12,244 bases of DNA from a virus (Duplodnaviria; Heunggongvirae; Uroviricota; Caudoviricetes): the IMG/VR virus record IMGVR_UViG_2681813321_000010; one strand, 5' to 3'. The translations under genes and the position numbers were made by a program. Below the pieces are notes generated by a model. It ran no database searches, was not told the origin of the DNA, and worked only from the letters and a program-made list of their open reading frames with translations. Of this stretch, positions 1,956 through 10,158 are shown piece after piece (the first letter of the stretch is position 1; every line of letters starts with the position of its first letter).

Positions 1956-2460
1956 ACAGGCTCGTGAGGCTCTGGATGCCTGGATATGTCGACCAGGAAT
2001 GACACAGGAGCAGGCGACGATATTAATCACTGAAGCATTCTGGGCTTTGAAAGAGCGCCCGAACATCGATGTTCAGCGTGTCACAGATGAAGGTGGCGCG
2101 GTTGATCAGCGAGCGCTTGGCGTTAATCGAGTGAAGATATTCGAACGCTGGAAGGCTATCGACACCAGGGATAAGCGTGAAAAGTTCACGGCGCTAGTGC
2201 CTGCGATTATGGAGGCTATCCGGATTAGTGATTTCAGGTTGTATCGTGAGATCAGTGATGGAAAAAGTATTACGTACATGATCGCCGGGTTAAATAAAGA
2301 ATATGGCGATGTGGTGGAATCCGGACTGCTTTTTGCAGATCCTGCCGTTGTAGATCGTGAAACTGACGAACTTATAGAAAAAGCAATTGCTTTCAAGCTT
2401 GCGTATCGACAGCAATACCAACAAAAAGCTGGATGGAATTATGAGTCTTCTTTTTGCTGA
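1939..2460 (+). CDS. ydfX: YdfX-like early-operon protein of 173 aa. It overlaps the dicC stop by 17 nt, which suggests translational coupling. Function unknown; possibly a CII/YdaT-like regulator.
   Basis: Long ORF with a start inside the dicC 3' end, paralogous to 6316..6837. In K-12 a truncated pseudogene, ydfX, directly follows dicC. The symbol rests on that synteny, recalled from memory. Confidence 0.6.
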   Translation: MKITPEQAREALDAWICRPGMTQEQATILITEAFWALKERPNIDVQRVTDEGGAVDQRALGVNRVKIFERWKAIDTRDKREKFTALVPAIMEAIRISDFRLYREISDGKSITYMIAGLNKEYGDVVESGLLFADPAVVDRETDELIEKAIAFKLAYRQQYQQKAGWNYESSFC

Positions 2461-3406
2461 ACGCCCACTGGTTATAAACACGCAGCTGGCAATGAAAATT
2501 GGCTTAAACGAAGCCATTGTTTTGCAACAACTGCACTACTGGTTGAGAGATACCAACTCCGGCATGGAATGTGATGGTGTTCGCTGGATTTATAACACAA
2601 CGGAACAATGGCTGGAACAGTTCCCATTCTGGTCAGAGTCAACGTTAAAGCGCGCGTTTGCAAGTCTGAAAACGCTGGGGCTTTTGCGTTGTGAAAAGCT
2701 CAATAAATCAAAGCGCGATATGACCAATTTCTACACGATCAACTACGGGAGCGAGCTTTTAGATGGTGGCAAATTGAGCGAATCCATCGGTTTAAAATGC
2801 GCCGCTCCATCAGGTCAAAATGACACGATGGAAGAGGTCAAAATGAAACGCTCCATTGGTTCAAAACGACTCAATGTCATCGGGTCAAAATGGCCTGATG
2901 ATCTTACAGAGAATACAACAGAGATTACTACAGAGAATAAAAAGACTTCTCGTCCGGAAGCTTCGCAACCGGACCCGCAGACGGTTGAACAGGATTTTTT
3001 AACCCGACACCCTGACGCGGTTGTGTTCAGTGCGAAAAAACGCCAGTGGGGCAGCCAGGAAGATTTGGCGTGTGCGCAGTGGATCTGGGGGCGAATCGTG
3101 AGTCTTTACGAGCAGGCCGCCAGCGATGATGGCGAGATTTCGCGACCGAAAGAACCCAACTGGACCGCATGGGCCAACGACGTGCGCACAATGCGGATGC
3201 TGGATGGCAGAACTCACAGACAAATTTGTGAAATGTTTGGTCGGGTGCAGCGGGATCCATTCTGGGTAAAAAATATCATGAGTCCGTCAAAGCTTCGCGA
3301 AAAATGGGATGAACTGGTTATCCGCCTGGGGCGTTCGTCTGTACAGCGTTGTGTGAATCATATTTCTGAGCCGGATACCGAAATTCCGCCGGGCTTCAGG
3401 GGGTAA
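2441..3406 (+). CDS. Lambda-O-like replication initiator or replisome organizer (321 aa from ATG 2441). Its N-terminal domain is winged-helix-like, a low-complexity linker is encoded by the iteron array, and a C-terminal domain follows.
   Basis: The ORF track gives a TTG start at 2387, but the ATG at 2441 overlaps the upstream stop by 20 nt and is the likelier start. The N-terminus LVINTQLAMKIGLNEAIVLQQLHYWL is typical of phage replication initiators. The in-gene iterons plus the AT-rich tract mirror the ori inside lambda gene O. Confidence 0.7.
   Translation: MSLLFAERPLVINTQLAMKIGLNEAIVLQQLHYWLRDTNSGMECDGVRWIYNTTEQWLEQFPFWSESTLKRAFASLKTLGLLRCEKLNKSKRDMTNFYTINYGSELLDGGKLSESIGLKCAAPSGQNDTMEEVKMKRSIGSKRLNVIGSKWPDDLTENTTEITTENKKTSRPEASQPDPQTVEQDFLTRHPDAVVFSAKKRQWGSQEDLACAQWIWGRIVSLYEQAASDDGEISRPKEPNWTAWANDVRTMRMLDGRTHRQICEMFGRVQRDPFWVKNIMSPSKLREKWDELVIRLGRSSVQRCVNHISEPDTEIPPGFRG
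2789..2950. repeat. ori-like iteron array inside the O-like gene. Five GGT(C/T)(A/T)AAA(T/C)G repeats with 22-25 bp periodicity (starts 2789, 2813, 2836, 2858, 2883), followed by an AT-rich ACAGAGAATA-repeat tract (2901-2950).
   Basis: Counted directly from the sequence. The encoded protein shows the matching repeats GQN/SIGSKR/VIGSKW. Confidence 0.6.
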
Positions 3407-3446: not shown

Positions 3447-3869
3447 GTGGCAAAAGTTTTTACACAAGAAGAGCGGGAAAAAATTAAAGGGCAGGTTGTT
3501 GAACTCGTACGCCGGAGTGGGCGTGAGACGTTACGGCAACTGGAAGTCAAGACAGGTGCGACAAGATATCTGATGAGCGTTCTCGCAAGAGAGCTGGTTG
3601 CCAGCGGCGATGTATACAACTCTGGTTACGGGTTATTCCCGTCTGAACAGGCGCGTAAGGACTGGCAAAATGCCCGTAAAAAGCTCTCAAGGGCAAAGCT
3701 GAAGGAACCATCTGCGGTTGATCCGGACCTTATCTGGTCATTACCTGACGGAGAAATACGTCGCTACGACAGGCGTCAGAACATAATCTGTCGCGAGTGC
3801 CGGAAGAGTGAAGTTATGCAGCGCATACTAGCATTCTATCAGGGAAATGCTCGATATTTATTGAAGTGA
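3447..3869 (+). CDS. Conserved 140-aa protein downstream of the O-like gene. GTG start; function unknown. It occupies the position where a helicase loader (P/DnaC-like) would be expected.
   Basis: AGGAGGG Shine-Dalgarno 6 nt upstream of the GTG. Paralogue 7824..8231 is about 90% identical. Basic C-terminus with a single CxxC. Confidence 0.6.
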   Translation: MAKVFTQEEREKIKGQVVELVRRSGRETLRQLEVKTGATRYLMSVLARELVASGDVYNSGYGLFPSEQARKDWQNARKKLSRAKLKEPSAVDPDLIWSLPDGEIRRYDRRQNIICRECRKSEVMQRILAFYQGNARYLLK

Positions 3870-4121: not shown

Positions 4122-4547
4122 ATGATTGATCCACTTATTAGAAACTTACAGAGTGATATTGCACTACTCCAGCTTTATATCGCGCAACGCAAACAGGCAG
4201 GCTTTCATGACATGGAAAGAATAATTGAGTCATTGACCATCTTTATGTTTCGCGCGCTGAAAATGGGTGAACTGGTAAACATGAATCAGATTAAAGTTAA
4301 TTTTCCCGCCATTGATTTAGCTGATAATAAAAACATGATAGCAGTTCAAGTTACTACGAATGCAAGTCCAGCAAAAATTAAAAAAACTATCGAATCTTTT
4401 GAGAAAATAAATGAAATAGGAGAGAGTCTGAAAGATAAATACTCTACTTTATATATTTTTGGTTTTAACTGTTCCGCGTGCGCTCAGCCGCATTCACCGC
4501 ATCACAAAATTCACTTTAAAAACGGCGGCAGAGCAGTCACGGAGTAA
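4122..4547 (+). CDS. AT-rich 141-aa ORF, possibly a truncated or chimeric N-terminal domain of an abortive-infection-type protein. It tentatively resembles a SMEK-type N-terminal domain. The last ~30 codons are encoded by the direct repeat.
   Basis: AAGGA Shine-Dalgarno 9 nt upstream. GC content is visibly far below the flanking sequence. The region from 4456 onward is shared with 74-165, where a different upstream reading frame fuses to the same tail FGFNCSACAQPHSPHHKIHFKNGGRAVTE. The stop codon lies inside the DicF copy-2 terminator on the opposite strand. Confidence 0.5.
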   Translation: MIDPLIRNLQSDIALLQLYIAQRKQAGFHDMERIIESLTIFMFRALKMGELVNMNQIKVNFPAIDLADNKNMIAVQVTTNASPAKIKKTIESFEKINEIGESLKDKYSTLYIFGFNCSACAQPHSPHHKIHFKNGGRAVTE

Positions 4548-4575
4548 AACTGATACCGCCAAACGTCACCAGAAA
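4521..4575 (-). ncRNA. dicF: DicF small RNA, copy 2. Identical to copy 1.
   Basis: Same sequence as 139-193, offset 4382. Confidence 0.8.
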
Positions 4576-4915
4576 ATTGATAACAGAGGGCGTTGCAGCG
4601 GGGTTGTCGCTTAAGCGTATGGTCAACCTGACAACCCGGTGTCCTCAACGGGGAAGGAATAACCCCGCCATACTTACCGCCGCGCCATTTCGCGGAGTGC
4701 CACAACCGGAAGCGCACGGTCGACGAAAATTTAACGACAGGCTATCTATGAACCAGCTACCTCGCCGTGCGCTTTCGCGTTATGGTCTGACTTTTCATGG
4801 AAATATCCTTTCAGTAAACTGTCAGTGCCGGATGCTCACCCATGTCCGGCGCACGCACTCCACCTCACCCGTGGAGAACTCCTTAATTACCAACCTTAGC
4901 TTCGTTGGTTAGCTA

Positions 4916-5134
4916 TTAACGCGGGTATGTAATCATTCTGGCAATGCTTAATGCCGCTGCTTTTTCCAGCCTGGTGATATCCTGCTCCAGAGCGGACAGA
5001 TTTTCAGCCTGCTTAGCCCTGGCTTCATTGGCCCATTTCAGATCCTGCGCTGCATTAATTTTCTGGCGCATCCACTCATAAAGTTCATCATCGGTATAGT
5101 CTGGCGAGATGATGACGGGTTCTCGTTTCTGCAT
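4916..5134 (-). CDS. ydfC: YdfC-like protein, copy 2. Identical to copy 1.
   Basis: Identical translation to 534..752. Confidence 0.65.
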   Translation of the reverse strand: MQKREPVIISPDYTDDELYEWMRQKINAAQDLKWANEARAKQAENLSALEQDITRLEKAAALSIARMITYPR

Positions 5135-5163
5135 ACTGATTCCTCGCGGTGCTGCTTCGCTTA

Positions 5164-5292
5164 TCAGCCGTTAGATTTTGCCGAGCTGGAAAGCGCCTGT
5201 TTAAACTCACTGAAGCTGAGAGCTTCTTCGCCTTCGGCAAGGCCTTCGAAGTATTCTTCGTAAGCCTTTTCCATGATTGTGTCGAAATCCAT
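5164..5292 (-). CDS. ydfB: YdfB-like 42-aa protein, copy 2.
   Basis: Offset copy of 782..910. Confidence 0.6.
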   Translation of the reverse strand: MDFDTIMEKAYEEYFEGLAEGEEALSFSEFKQALSSSAKSNG

Positions 5293-5293
5293 A

Positions 5294-5449
5294 TCACTCA
5301 CCTGAGTTTCTTTCCAGCCAGCGACGGGCACCATTTTCGGTTTTAAACGTTTTGCTTCTGGTATACGTCATCGCGGTAAACGTGCCGTCCTGGTTGGGAA
5401 ACACGCCGCATACCAGAGATTCGTTGTTGCCAAGATCGATAGTATTCAT
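5294..5449 (-). CDS. ydfA: YdfA-like 51-aa protein, copy 2 (D2N and Y14C relative to copy 1).
   Basis: Offset copy of 912..1067. The two amino-acid differences fall in the substitution cluster near the repeat boundary. Confidence 0.65.
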   Translation of the reverse strand: MNTIDLGNNESLVCGVFPNQDGTFTAMTYTRSKTFKTENGARRWLERNSGE

Positions 5450-5561
5450 GCTGACCTCATTTCCCCTTAACGCCGGGGTAGCGGAACTGTTTGCTGAGAA
5501 CACCGTGCGGTGTCTTGGTGGAGATTAATTTAGAATAACCTAACAAATGTAGCAAGTATTT

Positions 5562-5616: not shown

Positions 5617-6024
5617 TTATTTTATTGATTTGTTTTTACGTGCTTTAAGCATTTCTTCGAAGAGTTTATTGAAATTCTCTACTCTTGCGCGCATTTCAGA
5701 CAGTAAGGCTTCCTGCTCGGAGGAGGGAAGAGCATCGAATAATTCGATCAATTCTTTGTGGCTGGGAGTTAACTCGGTTTCCACATGAAGTTCTTGTGCT
5801 GGCACTGGTGCCTTGTCTTCGTCACCAAACATTAGCCATGTAGGCGAGCACTTCAGCGCATCAGCTAAAGCAAATAACCGCTTCCCGACCGGTTGGGTTT
5901 CGTCTCTTTCCCATTGTGAAATTGTGACGTGAGCTACCCCAGCGAGGCGTGCAGCTTCTCGTTGTGTTAGGCGTAATTCTTTTCGTCGTGCCAGAACTCG
6001 CTGGCCTAGGGTTCTTGTATCCAT
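5617..6024 (-). CDS. Second, hetero-immune DicA-type repressor (135 aa). It has a different HTH recognition region and is about 55% identical to DicA.
   Basis: MDTRTLGQRVLARRKELRLTQREAARLAGVAHVTISQWERDE... shows the same domain layout and C-terminal half as DicA. The N-terminal DNA-binding half is substituted. Confidence 0.85.
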   Translation of the reverse strand: MDTRTLGQRVLARRKELRLTQREAARLAGVAHVTISQWERDETQPVGKRLFALADALKCSPTWLMFGDEDKAPVPAQELHVETELTPSHKELIELFDALPSSEQEALLSEMRARVENFNKLFEEMLKARKNKSIK

Positions 6025-6092: not shown

Positions 6093-6104
6093 GAGGGGGC
6101 TTTG

Positions 6105-6332
6105 ATGCTTAAAGTTGACGCAATTACTTTTTTTGGCAGCAAAACAAAACTTGCCAATGCCGCAGGAGTGAAACTGGCAAGTGTTGCTGCATGGGGGGAA
6201 CTGGTTCCTGAAGGTCGCGCGATGCGCCTGCAAGAGGCATCCGGCGGGGAACTTCAGTACGACCCCAAAGTTTATGACGAATATCGTAAGGCAAAGCGGG
6301 CGGGGCGGTTGAACAATGAAAATCACCCCTGA
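6105..6332 (+). CDS. Second DicC/Cro-like regulator (75 aa from the ATG at 6105). Its N-terminal HTH is diverged and its C-terminal half is identical to DicC.
   Basis: GAGGGGG Shine-Dalgarno. The ORF-track start at 6102 is a TTG one codon upstream. Confidence 0.8.
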   Translation: MLKVDAITFFGSKTKLANAAGVKLASVAAWGELVPEGRAMRLQEASGGELQYDPKVYDEYRKAKRAGRLNNENHP

Positions 6333-6837
6333 ACAGGTTTGTGAGGCTCTGGATGCCTGGGTATGCCGACCAGGAATGACACAGGAGCAGGCGACGATAT
6401 TAATCACGGAAGCATTCTGGGCTCTGAAAGAACGCCCGAACATCGATGTTCAACGCGTCACGTTTAATGATGGCGAGGTTGATCAACGGGCGTTGGGCGT
6501 TAACCGGGTGAAGATATTCGAACGCTGGAAAGCTATCGACACCAGGGATAAGCGGGAAAAATTCACGGCGCTGATTCCGGCAATTATGGAGGCTATCCGG
6601 ATCAGCGATTTCAGGTTGTATTGTGAAATTACTGACGGAAAAAGCATTACGTACATGATCGCCGGGTTAAACAAAGAATATGGTGATGTGGTGGAGTCCG
6701 GGCTGCTTTTTGCGGATCCATCTGTTGTGGAACGTGAGACTGACGAGCTTATAGAAAAAGCTATTGCTTTCAAGCATGCGTATCGTCAGCAATACCAACA
6801 AAAAGCTGGATGGAATTATGAGCCTTCTTTTTGCTGA
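6316..6837 (+). CDS. ydfX: YdfX-like 173-aa protein, module B. It overlaps the dicC' stop by 17 nt, as in module A.
   Basis: About 90% identical to 1939..2460. Confidence 0.6.
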   Translation: MKITPEQVCEALDAWVCRPGMTQEQATILITEAFWALKERPNIDVQRVTFNDGEVDQRALGVNRVKIFERWKAIDTRDKREKFTALIPAIMEAIRISDFRLYCEITDGKSITYMIAGLNKEYGDVVESGLLFADPSVVERETDELIEKAIAFKHAYRQQYQQKAGWNYEPSFC

Positions 6838-7783
6838 ACGCCCACTGGTTATAAACACACAGCTTGCGATGAAGATTGGCTTAAATGAAGCCATTGTGTT
6901 GCAGCAGTTGCATTACTGGTTGAGAGATACCAGTTCCGGTATGGAATGTGACGGGGTTCGCTGGATTTATAACACAACAGAACAATGGCTGGAACAGTTC
7001 CCGTTCTGGTCAGAGTCAACGTTAAAACGCGCATTTGCAAGTCTGAAAACGCTGGGGCTTTTGCGTTGCGAAAAGCTCAACAAATCAAAGCGTGATATGA
7101 CTAATTTTTACACGATTAATTACGAGAGTGAGCTTTTAGATGGTGGCAAAGTGAGCGAATCCATCAGGTCAAAATGCGCCGCTCCATCGGGTCAAAATGA
7201 CACGATGGAAGAGGTCAAAATGGCACGCTCCATTGGTTCAAAACGACCCAATGTCATCGGGTCAAAATGGCCTGATGATCTTACAGAGAATACAACAGAG
7301 ATTACTACAGAGAATAAAAACACTTCTCGTCCGGAAGCTTCGCAACCGGACCCGCAGACGGCTGAACAGGATTTTTTAACCCGACACCCTGACGCGGTTG
7401 TGTTCAGTGCGAAAAAACGCCAGTGGGGAAGTCAGGAAGATTTGGCGTGCGCACAGTGGATCTGGGGACGAATCGTGAGTCTTTACGAGCAGGCTGCCAG
7501 CGATGATGGCGAGATCACGCGACCGAAAGAACCAAACTGGACCGCATGGGCCAATGACGTGCGCACAATGCGGATGCTGGATGGCAGAAGCCACAGACAA
7601 ATTTGCGAAATGTTTGGTCGGGTACAGCGAGATCCATTCTGGGTAAAAAACATCATGAGCCCGTCAAAGCTTCGCGAAAAATGGGACGACCTGGTCATCC
7701 GCCTGGGGCGTTCACCTGTACAGTGTTGTGTGAATCATATTTCTGAACCGGATACCGAAATTCCGCCTGGTTTCAGGGGATAA
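6818..7783 (+). CDS. O-like replication initiator, module B (321 aa from ATG 6818).
   Basis: Paralogue of 2441..3406 with the same overlapping start context. Confidence 0.7.
   Translation: MSLLFAERPLVINTQLAMKIGLNEAIVLQQLHYWLRDTSSGMECDGVRWIYNTTEQWLEQFPFWSESTLKRAFASLKTLGLLRCEKLNKSKRDMTNFYTINYESELLDGGKVSESIRSKCAAPSGQNDTMEEVKMARSIGSKRPNVIGSKWPDDLTENTTEITTENKNTSRPEASQPDPQTAEQDFLTRHPDAVVFSAKKRQWGSQEDLACAQWIWGRIVSLYEQAASDDGEITRPKEPNWTAWANDVRTMRMLDGRSHRQICEMFGRVQRDPFWVKNIMSPSKLREKWDDLVIRLGRSPVQCCVNHISEPDTEIPPGFRG
7167..7327. repeat. ori-like iteron array, module B. Five GGT(C/T)CAAAA(T/C)G repeats (starts 7167, 7190, 7213, 7235, 7260) followed by an AT-rich ACAGAGAATA tract.
   Basis: Counted directly. 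Same periodicity as module A. Confidence 0.6.
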
Positions 7784-7823
7784 GTGGTGATTTTAGGGCA
7801 TAAAGTAATGTTCAGGAGGACTT

Positions 7824-8231
7824 ATGGCAAAAGTATTTACACAGGAAGAGCGGGAAAAAATTAAAGGACAGGTGGTGGAACTCGTGCGCCAGAGCGGTCG
7901 TGAGACGTTACGGCAACTGGAAGCTAAAACAGGTGCGACAAGATATCTGATGAGCGTTCTTGCCAGAGAGCTGGTTGCCAGTGGTGATGTATATCACTCT
8001 GGCTATGGGGTGTTCCCGTCAGAACGGGCTCGTAAGGACTGGCAAAACGCCCGCAAAAAACTCTCGAGGGCAAAGGTGAAGAAACCTGTTGTGGTTGATC
8101 CGGGCCTTATCTGGACATTACCCGACGGAGAAATACGCCGCTACGACAGGCGTATGAACATAATCTGTCGCGAGTGCCGGAAGAGCGAAGTTATGCAGCG
8201 TGTATTGGCGTTCTATCAGGGATATGCCTAG
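7824..8231 (+). CDS. Conserved 135-aa protein downstream of the O-like gene, module B.
   Basis: AGGAGGA Shine-Dalgarno. Paralogue of 3447..3869 with a shorter C-terminus. Confidence 0.6.
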   Translation: MAKVFTQEEREKIKGQVVELVRQSGRETLRQLEAKTGATRYLMSVLARELVASGDVYHSGYGVFPSERARKDWQNARKKLSRAKVKKPVVVDPGLIWTLPDGEIRRYDRRMNIICRECRKSEVMQRVLAFYQGYA

Positions 8232-8277
8232 AATTGTCACAGGTAATGAAATTAAAGAGTATTGGTTCGGATATGAA

Positions 8278-8599: not shown

Positions 8600-9631
8600 A
8601 TGTCTATTAATCCTAAACTTAAGCGTATCGCGCGACGCTATCCAGCGTTATTCCAATATGAGTCCCCCTATATGGCAAGAAAATTAATAATATTCGGCAA
8701 CGGTCTCGGTATGGCTTTAGATCCTGCTCACTTCTCCTTAGACAGAGCGTTGGAAGAAATTTGGCATCGCCCCAATTTTTTAAAAGATATCCACAAGCAA
8801 CTTATCGAGCGTTGTCTTCAGCGGCAAGGTCCACCAGAAGGAGAACATGAGTTGGATACCCTTCACCAGGCTGTCACATATTGTAAAGCTCTTGCTCAAA
8901 TTGGAGAGGGGAACGTGCATTGGCTTACTGAAGATGGACTAAACTTCCCCAAAATTACCGCCACTTATATTCACAAAGTTGCAACCAGGTTGCATAATTA
9001 CGATAAAGGTTTGCCACAAAGATTCGAAAATGCGCTTGTGGAGTTTGTAAAGAACACACACTCACATATCGCGACATTAAACTATGACAAATTATTATAC
9101 AATTCATTCATAGATAATGATATATTCAACGGGTATGATGGGGTTTTAGTTGATGGGATGCTAAGCCACGGATTTTCCTCTGCAGCGCTCGAACGGAAAT
9201 ACAATCGTAGGTTTGGTTATTATTTGCACTTGCATGGTTCACCACTATTTATTAATCAGCATGAAAATGTTTTAAAACTTTCACGCTCACAACTTACTCT
9301 TGACATAGATGAACCTAGTGAGCATATAGTGTTAACTCATATAAAAAGAAAACCGTCAGTTATAGCAGCATCTAATGTTCTTTCTACGTACTGGGATTAT
9401 TTGCAGTTTGCATTATTTGAATCAGAAGAAATAATATTGTTTGGTTACTCTGGTCTCGATATTCACCTTAACCTGCTTATTCGACCTTACCTAACCTCTA
9501 AGCCTTTAAGAGTAATTGAGTGGAGCGGTGCTGGTGAACAAAACGCTCGTGAGATATATTGGAAAAACCAGTTGAGACGGGAAGTTACTGTAATTAGGTT
9601 GGATAACATCACTGATTTTATTGATTGGTAG
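8600..9631 (+). CDS. Stand-alone SIR2-family (SIR2_2/ThsA-like NAD+-hydrolase fold) protein of 343 aa in an AT-rich island. Candidate anti-phage defence effector.
   Basis: Motifs seen in the translation: LIIFGNGLGMAL (Rossmann-like N-terminal loop), IATLNYD (the TTNYD-type catalytic Asn motif), YLHLHGS (catalytic His motif) and ILFGYSGLD (the FxGYSxxD motif). GC content is clearly lower than in the flanking phage genes. No SLOG, TIR, STAND or HerA partner is encoded nearby. Confidence 0.75.
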   Translation: MSINPKLKRIARRYPALFQYESPYMARKLIIFGNGLGMALDPAHFSLDRALEEIWHRPNFLKDIHKQLIERCLQRQGPPEGEHELDTLHQAVTYCKALAQIGEGNVHWLTEDGLNFPKITATYIHKVATRLHNYDKGLPQRFENALVEFVKNTHSHIATLNYDKLLYNSFIDNDIFNGYDGVLVDGMLSHGFSSAALERKYNRRFGYYLHLHGSPLFINQHENVLKLSRSQLTLDIDEPSEHIVLTHIKRKPSVIAASNVLSTYWDYLQFALFESEEIILFGYSGLDIHLNLLIRPYLTSKPLRVIEWSGAGEQNAREIYWKNQLRREVTVIRLDNITDFIDW

Positions 9632-9791: not shown

Positions 9792-10002
9792 TTTTATATT
9801 GGCGAGGTGACGGGAGTTAAGTAGAATTGCTGCGGGTGCTTGAGGCTGTCTGCCTCGGGCATGCCACCGTAAGGCAGACAGAGAAAAGCCCCAGTTAACA
9901 TTACGCGTCCTGCAAGACGCTTAACATTAATCTGAGGCCCAATCTATGCTTCACAAACGTAGGTTAGCCTCTTACGCGCCGAAAGGCAAGGAGAAGCAGG
10001 CT

Positions 10003-10158
10003 ATGAAGCAGCAAAAGGCGATGTTAATCGCCCTGATCGTCATCTGTTTAACCGTCATAGTGACGGCACTGGTAACGAGGAAAGACCTCTGCGAGGTACG
10101 AATCCGAACCGGCCAGACGGAGGTCGCTGTCTTCACAGCTTACGAACCTGAGGAGTAA
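10003..10158 (+). CDS. hokD: HokD (RelF), a Hok/Gef-family type I toxin of 51 aa. An in-frame upstream start at 9946 gives a 70-codon mok-like reading frame.
   Basis: MKQQKAMLIALIVICLTVIVTALVTRKDLCEVRIRTGQTEVAVFTAYEPEE is recognised as the Hok family and specifically HokD. AAGGAG Shine-Dalgarno. The leader contains a 10-bp-stem hairpin (9846-9881) typical of hok mRNAs. Confidence 0.85.
   Translation: MKQQKAMLIALIVICLTVIVTALVTRKDLCEVRIRTGQTEVAVFTAYEPEE

Follow-up and report, generated by a model that had tools for sequence, protein, structure and literature searches.

Putative lambda-type origins inside tandem O-like initiator genes with a DnaT-like tail in a lambdoid prophage

How, or whether, a replication origin fires when its prophage offers no gene for a helicase loader is the question raised by the DNA analysed here, a stretch of 12,244 nucleotides (nt) from the virus record IMGVR_UViG_2681813321_000010 in IMG/VR (hereafter, the window). 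In the window, the early genes of a lambdoid prophage of the Qin/DicA type occur twice, as two tandem copies (modules A and B). Each module has an O-like initiator gene of 321 amino acids (aa), at 2441–3406 in module A and at 6818–7783 in module B, both on the plus strand and 66 nucleotide differences apart. A preliminary description of this DNA had placed an origin inside each of these genes, after the manner of ori-lambda. Judged by its sequence, the element is a lambda-O-type replicon that either lost its own loader or never had one, and whose initiator ends in a tail of the DnaT type. We consider it fairly probable that each module is a lambda-type replicon with the origin inside its initiator gene, and that the solo initiator recruits the DnaB–DnaC complex of the host through this tail.

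A repeat search and motif counts identified five direct repeats (iterons) of 23 nt in each O-like gene, at 2785–2900 in module A and at 7162–7277 in module B, on the plus strand. The iterons start at 2785, 2808, 2831, 2854 and 2878 in array A and at 7162, 7185, 7208, 7231 and 7255 in array B, so that the start-to-start spacing is 23, 23, 23 and 24 nt in both. The five repeats at about 23 bp that had previously been placed in the linker-coding part of both genes were thus recovered, with coordinates that agree. The iteron consensus, CATcgGgTCAAAATGncnCGaTg, has partial internal dyad symmetry, and several units are partial palindromes; in module B, TCCATCGGGTCA-AAA-TGACACGATGGA is 92% complementary. 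The 10-nt core GGTCAAAATG was matched 7 times with at most one mismatch, while 1.17 matches were expected, and none of 200 shuffles had as many. For the 15-nt consensus CATCRGGTCAAAATG, with at most three mismatches, 10 matches were found on the two strands of the 12.2 kb, compared to 0.74 expected. All 10 are the ten array units, on one strand, and none lies elsewhere in the window.

Each array is followed by an A-rich tract of 49 nt, at 2900–2948 in module A and at 7277–7325 in module B (plus strand), which is a candidate unwinding element. The tract is 69% A+T and 49% A in both modules, and is made of three 12-mers, TACAGAGAATAC, AACAGAGATTAC and TACAGAGAATAA; the 12-mer motif was matched 7 times in the window, compared to 0.27 expected. 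Of all 45-mers in each O-like gene, that of the tract has the lowest stability (z = 2.1 relative to the whole window), and the most marked property of the tract is its strand asymmetry.

Copies of the core GGTCAAAATG fall into all three reading frames, where they encode GQN, VKM and (G)SK(W), and the translated iteron segment (…SIGLKCAAPSGQNDTMEEVKMKRSIGSKRLNVIGSKW…) is not a peptide repeat. Since 23 nt is not a whole number of codons, the repeat is in the DNA and not in the protein. Between modules A and B, the ratio of synonymous to nonsynonymous differences was 26:4 and 21:6 in the two domains of the initiator, and 1:8 in the central region at 2785–3000 (pooled, 47:10 versus 1:8, p = 5.8e-5). 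Polymorphism was computed from 45 distinct alleles taken from 85 loci. A first IMG/VR family-alignment scan had given only relatives of 95–100% identity, and served for polymorphism and not for divergence. Third positions were polymorphic in 39–62% of the codons in the domains, in 20.5% in the iterons and in 12.5% in the A-rich tract; over iterons and tract together 10/55 third positions varied, compared to 118/250 in the domains (p = 6.8e-5). Codon positions 1 and 2 of the tract are as variable as position 3, and relatives of 70% identity all keep its product, TENTTEITTENK, unchanged. From these comparisons, the linker-coding region is best described as constrained at the level of the nucleotides, while the peptide is under little constraint.

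We then related this DNA to the protein that it encodes. The initiator is predicted to consist of a winged-helix N-domain (residues 1–105), a linker (110–173), a helical C-domain (180–298) and a tail (305–321). An AlphaFold2 model, built from an alignment of 23 sequences, was confident for the N-domain (predicted local distance difference test score, pLDDT, of 80–93) and for the C-domain, while residues 110–173 had a pLDDT below 50. These residues are encoded by the iterons and the tract and are predicted to form a disordered linker. The protein matched PHROG 391, ‘replication initiation O-like’ (4.5e-95), and in BLASTP its residues 147–294 aligned with residues 135–270 of lambda O at 35% identity (E 4e-28). 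By this alignment the C-domain is homologous to lambda O, and the homology is limited to the C-domain. The N-domain could not be aligned with lambda O, which is why the Phage_rep_O model of Pfam does not match the initiator. Apart from the DnaT tail described below, Pfam and NCBIfam gave no family for the initiator at E values up to 10. A sequence search of the PDB with the single protein as query matched the tail only, and a profile of the C-domain found nothing meaningful there. Foldseek with the full model returned generic winged-helix matches only, with weak scores (E 0.02–0.08), including 4pql, 4pt7 and 5kbj. Because the C-domain is homologous to that of lambda O, the origin would be of the lambda type, and the element can be described from its sequence as a lambda-type origin–initiator module in which the DNA-binding domain was replaced together with its cognate iterons.

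The array and the three 12-mers are kept in place and phase in the divergent Escherichia and Klebsiella phage records (L084 and L085), mEp460_4F5 (78% DNA identity) and Klebsiella phage ST147-VIM1phi7.2 (77%). Initiators with other N-domains carry other repeats: GGGCAAARCCCA at 23-nt phase in L096, TTCTGAACGTYCAGA at the corresponding position in L095, and GTCACG-based repeats at the corresponding position in phage Tritos. Since a different N-domain comes with different repeats, the iteron sequence tracks the DNA-binding domain, as expected for the sites of an initiator. The earlier view that the O-like genes follow the logic of ori-lambda is therefore supported by four kinds of sequence evidence, namely the C-domain homology, the layout, the constraint on the DNA, and the co-variation of iterons and N-domain.

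L096 keeps the CTACAGAGAnTA 12-mers. Three tandem 12-mers that start with ACAGA (ACAGAGAATACA, ACAGATAAAGAT and CTACAGAGAnTA) come after the iterons also where the N-domains of the initiators are unrelated; they lie at 2905–2941 and 7282–7318 in the window, at 1928–1963 in L086, at 3452–3487 in L096 and at 4441–4482 in L089, and encode T-E/D-x-T runs. The design of an unwinding element with three 12-mers appears to be conserved across initiator families.

A natural initiator allele of 290 aa lacks 31 residues, or exactly 93 nt, which is the distance from iteron 1 to iteron 5. The deleted part corresponds to 2785–2877 of the window, and a single iteron is left. Such alleles (P0016 and P0018–P0022) are found in several E. 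coli genomes, on contigs of up to 264 kb, and look like natural deletions of the putative origin by recombination between repeats. The module is also present in the phage records mEp460_ev081, HannyBb and PhiR42_1; in mEp460_ev081 it is the sole replication-type gene set from the immunity region to the Q region.

Next, we sought to determine how the helicase could reach such an origin. Searches of the window with Pfam and tblastn found no homologue of lambda P, of DnaC-like or of DnaB-like proteins. As noted in the preliminary description, the gene after the initiator is not a P- or DnaC-type loader gene; it encodes a DUF977 protein of 140 aa in module A (3447–3869, plus strand; Pfam DUF977, 2e-30) and of 135 aa in module B (7824–8231, plus strand; PHROG 142, 1.6e-45). 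Since the window has no lambda P, DnaC-like or DnaB-like protein, the helicase would have to come from the host.

The last 17 residues of the initiator, VNHISEPDTEIPPGFRG (aa 305–321), are identical to residues 163–179 of E. coli DnaT at 14 of 17 positions, and the match was verified against the K-12 dnaT sequence. These codons lie at 3353–3403 in module A and at 7730–7780 in module B (plus strand), with identical translations. The tail fits the pattern …V-N-x-[VI]-S-E-P-D-x-x-I-P-P-G-F-R-G. When the initiator was compared to the PDB with phmmer, residues 296–321 alone aligned, to residues 159–179 of DnaT from E. coli and Klebsiella (9zbt_D, 2ru8_A and 6aep_A). The NCBIfam DnaT equivalog model scored 17.2 bits against a cutoff of 201, over the tail only (model positions 158–179). 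No full-length match to DnaT, with its N-terminal oligomerisation domain, acidic linker and three-helix C-domain, was found with this model, while hhalign gave 85% for the initiator C-domain against the DnaT C-domain, a possible distant homology.

To see which loader goes with which tail, we compared 11 tail-bearing initiators with six that end otherwise, drawn from the modules of the window, from phage records and from look-ups of contigs. A lambda-P or helicase gene follows none of the 11 and 5/6 of the others (p = 0.001). Ten of the tail-bearing initiators have no loader after them (both window modules, mEp460_ev081, mEp460_4F5, the Klebsiella phage, Tritos, P0127, P0134, P0237 and P0135), and the remaining one, L096, has a DnaC-like AAA+ gene next. 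P0033 belongs to the other group. It is 73% identical to the window initiator, with the same iterons and the same neighbours, YdaT and DUF977, and has a tryptophan-rich (W-rich) tail, …GDWNSADGWEDVL, with a Phage_lambda_P gene next. Beside P0033, lambda P is next in three of the cases without an IPxGFRG tail, a primase-helicase in one, and nothing recognisable in one.

Larger samples gave the same association. A scan of IMG/VR for D-x-x-I-P-x-G-F-R-G followed by a stop codon found 120 loci, all of which are in-frame ends of open reading frames (ORFs). For the 108 ORFs of at least 200 aa, the next loader was of the DnaC type in 51, absent in 43 and undeterminable in 14; lambda P and helicase were next in none. 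Representative next genes of the class without a loader encode DUF977, Dam, Rha, PerC-like and zinc-ribbon proteins. The IPPGFRG tail was found in 79/79 initiators upstream of YdaV-like DnaC genes. Upstream of lambda-P-like genes, 32/32 initiators had the W-rich tail [HDN]WN[ST][AP]E[AG]W..[TF]L (for example L221–L252, L087 and L088); lambda O itself (L334) ends …TDWIYGVDL. Thus, in the samples examined, an initiator with an IPxGFRG tail has a DnaC-type gene next or no loader gene, and never lambda P, and the rule has zero exceptions in either direction in samples that are not phylogenetically independent. The W-rich tail may be the lambda-P docking counterpart of the IPPGFRG tail.

The IPxGFRG-type tail ends at least five unrelated initiator bodies: those with a lambda-O-type C-domain, the Tritos replisome-organiser type, the C-domain of the Klebsiella phage, YdaU of the Rac prophage (DUF1376) and DnaT-like C-halves. 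The tail pattern, when scanned against species-representative genomes, hit 63 dnaT genes and 25 prophage initiators, each of them in Enterobacterales by record name; matches in other phyla were discarded as chance, short ORFs or sequences without a stop codon. Four initiators from prophages of Phytobacter, Kosakonia and other Enterobacterales (L336, L450, L452 and L402) combine a DUF1376/YdaU-type N-domain with a DnaT-like C-half, which is 44–49% identical to DnaT 84–179 (E down to 2e-29). A DnaC-like gene comes directly after three of the four. These initiators resemble a phage counterpart of the dnaT–dnaC pair of the host, in which dnaT ends 2 nt before dnaC, and host DnaC is 48–50% identical over its full length to the phage DnaC-like loaders. 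Since DnaT-like prophage initiators stand upstream of DnaC-like genes, the DnaT C-domain and tail are a phage initiator module that travels with DnaC-type loaders.

Herein, we propose the following course of events, of which the first three steps are drawn by analogy with lambda O and ori-lambda. When the repressor of a module is lifted, rightward transcription would pass through the initiator gene. Initiator dimers would fill the five iterons and distort the DNA, and the adjacent A-rich tract of 12-mers would open. On the origin complex, the C-terminal tails, disordered and close together, would then capture host DnaB6–DnaC6, with DnaC as the likeliest direct partner, and DnaB would be loaded at the origin. 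The tail contact would be the one made by tail-bearing phage initiators that have their own DnaC-like loaders, and DnaT may do likewise in replication restart. Of the two routes to host DnaC that had been suggested beforehand, the O-like C-terminus and the 140-aa protein, the former is favoured by the DnaT-like tail and by its strict association with DnaC-type loaders. A broader proposal is that …PD-x-x-IPPGFRG is a portable docking motif for DnaC-type loaders, whether own or host, that dnaT–dnaC is a domesticated phage initiator–loader pair, and that the W-rich tail is the docking motif for lambda P. This proposal is tentative, and we hold it somewhat more apt to fail than to stand.

Several points weigh against the proposed replicon and its use of the tail. 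The first iteron of module A is degenerate (GGTTTAAAATG): at 2785–2799 module A has CATCGGTTTAAAATG and module B has CATCAGGTCAAAATG, and this iteron holds 3/7 of the differences between the two arrays. The A+T tract with repeats that had been described after each array exists, with its 49 nt and three 12-mers, but its A+T content of 69% is moderate and not extreme. The censuses are phylogenetically non-independent: many of their loci are prophages that hardly differ from each other, and identity to YdaV is 97% or more throughout the DnaC set. The class without a loader could conceal a loader that was not recognised. Finally, a structural study of the preprimosome (2026) names the N-domain of DnaT, and not its C-terminal tail, as a possible recruiter of DnaB/DnaC, and its cryo-electron microscopy (cryo-EM) structure has the DnaT C-domain docked on PriA (PMC13377028).

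The last point leads to an explanation in which the origin is as described, but the tail docks the initiator on PriA and/or PriB, and the restart primosome of the host loads DnaB. The interface between the DnaT C-domain and PriA in the cryo-EM structure is hydrophobic and conserved, and the DnaT linker binds PriB (PMC13377028); the hydrophobic residues of the tail (IPPGF) would fit such docking, and a direct contact between DnaT and DnaC has not been demonstrated (PMC11087952). However, the tail is found on initiators with their own DnaC-like loader next (51/108 in the census, Rac YdaU–YdaV and L096) and never on those with lambda P. Since the tail tracks the loader type while every host has PriA, the DnaC system is favoured over PriA. 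In addition, DnaT residues 154–179 are not assigned to the PriA interface in the preprimosome papers cited. We therefore regard docking on PriA or PriB as unlikely. A much smaller probability is given to the 140-aa DUF977 protein as the missing helicase loader or adaptor, the second route suggested beforehand. Its reading frame is the next to be translated after the initiator, a place taken in other modules by lambda P or DnaC-like genes, and the protein has a winged-helix-like N-terminus (PHROG 2391). But DUF977 follows a lambda-P gene in L087 and DnaC-like genes in L096 and in Rac (ydaV–ydaW), and hence is additional to a loader, while it is missing from mEp460_4F5, ST147-VIM1phi7.2 and the P0135 locus record, all of which keep the tail-bearing initiator; the two phage records also keep the origin. 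It has no match to an ATPase or helicase-binding family in Pfam, and the PHROGs class at this ren position is ‘Ren-like exclusion protein’ (PHROG 142). DUF977 was rejected as a loader on these grounds, and by this distribution the gene is accessory and dispensable, and not part of helicase delivery; that it could be the loader is very improbable.

The role of the arrays themselves may also be questioned. They could be sites that the initiator binds for control (autoregulation, handcuffing to set the copy number, or keeping out related phages) or relics in prophages that are decaying, with replication starting elsewhere. Plasmid iterons are known to serve control functions as well, and damage to the array is tolerated by prophages, as seen from the degenerate iteron 1 of module A and from the persistence in several E. 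coli genomes of the 290-aa allele, which lost four of the five repeats. Against this, the A-rich tract with its 12-mers comes after the array in every case, in the order found in lambda, and both are under DNA-level constraint; in mEp460_ev081 no other replication-type gene set exists between the immunity and Q regions; and the window holds no further iteron/A+T candidate for an origin. A scan of the window for DnaA boxes found none near either array, and one box with a single mismatch at 8787. We consider control sites or relics quite improbable. Scarcely credible, in our opinion, is that the periodic sequence is a repetitive peptide linker, or chance, with no role at the DNA level. The repeats are indeed contained entirely in a coding region, and what they encode is a linker of low complexity, but the period runs through three frames and yields non-repetitive peptides, shuffles never reach the observed repeat counts, the codon-position pattern of variation is lost in the repeat region, and in lambda the equivalent arrangement has experimentally annotated iterons. 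An origin in the initiator gene, with host DnaB–DnaC recruited by the DnaT-like tail, thus remains the reading that we favour.

We next asked how two such origins came to lie in one prophage. A BLASTN comparison of the window with itself showed that 74–1135 matches 4456–5517 at 99.5% identity and that 1818–3897 matches 6195–8274 at 90.1%. The repressor/cro segment of module A (1136–1817) is unmatched in module B, except for a 60-nt stretch of 82% identity. Since this segment has no counterpart in module B, the two modules are hetero-immune. Module A is similar to a prophage in E. coli C3, with dicA, dicC, a YdaT-family gene, a ‘hypothetical protein’, DUF977 and SMEK, and module B resembles a prophage of E. 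coli O111:H2 12A, with another repressor and cro and with a SIR2 gene downstream. The SMEK gene after module A (4122–4547) is cut to 141 aa and contains the junction of the modules. It is identical to the E. coli C3 version up to 4466 and then continues as the dicB–ydfC spacer of the second, 12A-like early region, with the crossover within an 11-nt microhomology, TTTTTGGTTTT, at 4456–4466. The junction was found in none of 5,426 complete E. coli genomes, and its 44-mer is absent from the GTDB species representatives. It arose by illegitimate recombination, as a rare event, or else in a chimeric assembly; since a microhomology of 11 nt is shorter than typical assembler k-mers, a real junction is favoured. 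The presence of two origins in one prophage, singled out in the preliminary description as uncommon, is thus true of the window, but the tandem reflects a single junction, mediated by microhomology, between two hetero-immune early regions, and does not belong to the phage type as such. The N-domains of the two initiators are 98% identical and their iterons are essentially the same, so that both origins should respond to either initiator, each under its own repressor.

The remaining genes of the two modules are arranged alike. Module A has a DicA-like repressor of 135 aa on the minus strand (1234–1641; Pfam HTH_3, 9.8e-16, and Phage_CI_repr), which is dicA in the near-identical E. coli C3 prophage, followed on the plus strand by a DicC-like Cro gene (1725–1955; Pfam P22_Cro, 1.7e-11; dicC in E. 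coli C3) and by a YdaT-family gene in the cII position (1939–2460; Pfam YdaT_toxin, 1.4e-5), which is labelled cII-like in phage records. In module B, the ORF list gives a repressor of 135 aa (5617–6024, minus strand), dissimilar to that of module A and corresponding to a helix-turn-helix (HTH) protein of strain 12A, and a Cro-like gene (6102–6332, plus strand), a Cro/CI family regulator in that strain. The YdaT-family gene of module B (6316–6837, plus strand) is annotated as toxin YdaT family and is 90% identical to that of module A. Proteins of 448 aa in P0002–P0004 join a YdaT_toxin domain to the full O-like sequence (96% identity), and probably arise when read-through or a frameshift fuses the ydaT-like gene to the initiator gene that overlaps it.

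An Rfam search found no match in the origin regions. Elsewhere it identified two identical DicF small RNA genes, one per module (141–192 and 4523–4574, both on the minus strand; 72.5 bits each), with the truncated SMEK ORF antisense to the second copy, and a hok/sok locus, in which the sok antitoxin RNA (9834–10008, plus strand) lies beside a hok-type ORF (9946–10158). The SMEK gene and a SIR2_2-domain gene (8600–9631) occupy the equivalent slot after DUF977 in the two parental prophage types. This slot looks like a hotspot for variable cargo or defence genes.

An origin as such is the expected kind of element in a lambdoid prophage. The initiator family is very large, with 4,317 close matches and 12,330 cluster representatives, and its members are nearly always annotated as ‘hypothetical protein’ and have no Pfam domain; their replication regions are uncharacterised in the literature on Shiga toxin (Stx) phages. 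Once the family is given an origin, a map of its domains and a route for helicase delivery, these prophages become interpretable. The last dozen residues of the initiator predict the loader type in every sample examined, and the tail that goes with DnaC is the tail of host DnaT. The rule bears on the open question of how DnaT brings in DnaB–DnaC during restart in E. coli, and it offers a rationale for temperate phages to drop the loader gene in hosts with DnaC. The tail findings also support the descent of dnaT–dnaC from a phage initiator–loader pair. The recruitment of DnaB/DnaC by the PriA–PriB–DnaT preprimosome is described as an unresolved step (PMC13377028, PMC11087952); if the docking proposal is true, the DnaT tail would be the missing link for it, and initiator tails would form a swap-in code for the helicase-delivery route. 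The literature searched holds no description of this origin or of the tail–loader rule that we could find; an earlier prediction of the origin is possible.

The closest known system is lambda itself. There, too, the origin lies inside the initiator gene, with dyad-like iterons and then an A-rich tract in the linker-coding part, and the genes follow the order repressor, cro, cII-position gene and initiator. The annotated ori of lambda has four iterons, spaced 20, 24 and 23 nt from start to start, and iterons and tract have the same order as in the window. In contrast to lambda O, the window initiators have a non-alignable N-domain and another iteron sequence, their modules have no P gene, and they end in DnaT-type IPPGFRG and not in a W-rich sequence. 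The iteron plasmids share direct iterons by an A+T-rich tract and, going by the predicted fold of the window N-domain, a winged-helix initiator, and the use of host helicase and loader would be common to both. The initiators RepA of pSC101, pi of R6K and TrfA of RK2 recruit host DnaB/DnaC without a loader of their own. RepA_N structures (4pql, 4pt7 and 5kbj) are among the nearest structural neighbours of the window N-domain, with weak scores. However, plasmid origins are intergenic and usually need DnaA boxes, of which none lies near the window arrays, and the plasmid initiators have no sequence relationship with those of the window and are not known to bear a tail like that of DnaT.

The non-lambdoid ‘Eru’ replication regions of Stx phages resemble the window modules by description only. 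Eru8 and Eru11 have a YdaT-family gene beside cI and HTH proteins and no O/P genes; the Eru regions are classed by gene content, and the working of these replicons was stated to be unknown (PMC8951638). In the Rac prophage of E. coli K-12, ydaU–ydaV(–ydaW) likewise has YdaS/YdaT-type regulators upstream and a DUF977 gene, ydaW, downstream, and YdaU ends …PDSAIPPGFRG (…VNTVSLPDSAIPPGFRG). It differs in that the body of YdaU is DUF1376 and that its own DnaC-like loader, YdaV, comes next, while the window has no such gene. DopC and DopE are domesticated lambda O/P-like genes. DopC is O-like, with an HTH N-domain and, by HHpred, a DnaT_C-like C-terminal motif (Brezellec et al. 2017, PMC5509034), as is the window initiator; unlike the latter it is chromosomal, has no iterons and is paired with a P-like protein (DopE). 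That study did not address the extreme tail or link it to the loader type (PMC5509034). DnaT, finally, differs from the window initiator in having no sequence-specific DNA-binding domain, no origin and an unrelated N-domain, and in acting at forks through PriA/PriB. Yet dnaT stands just upstream of dnaC, as the tail-bearing initiators of phages stand just upstream of DnaC-like genes.

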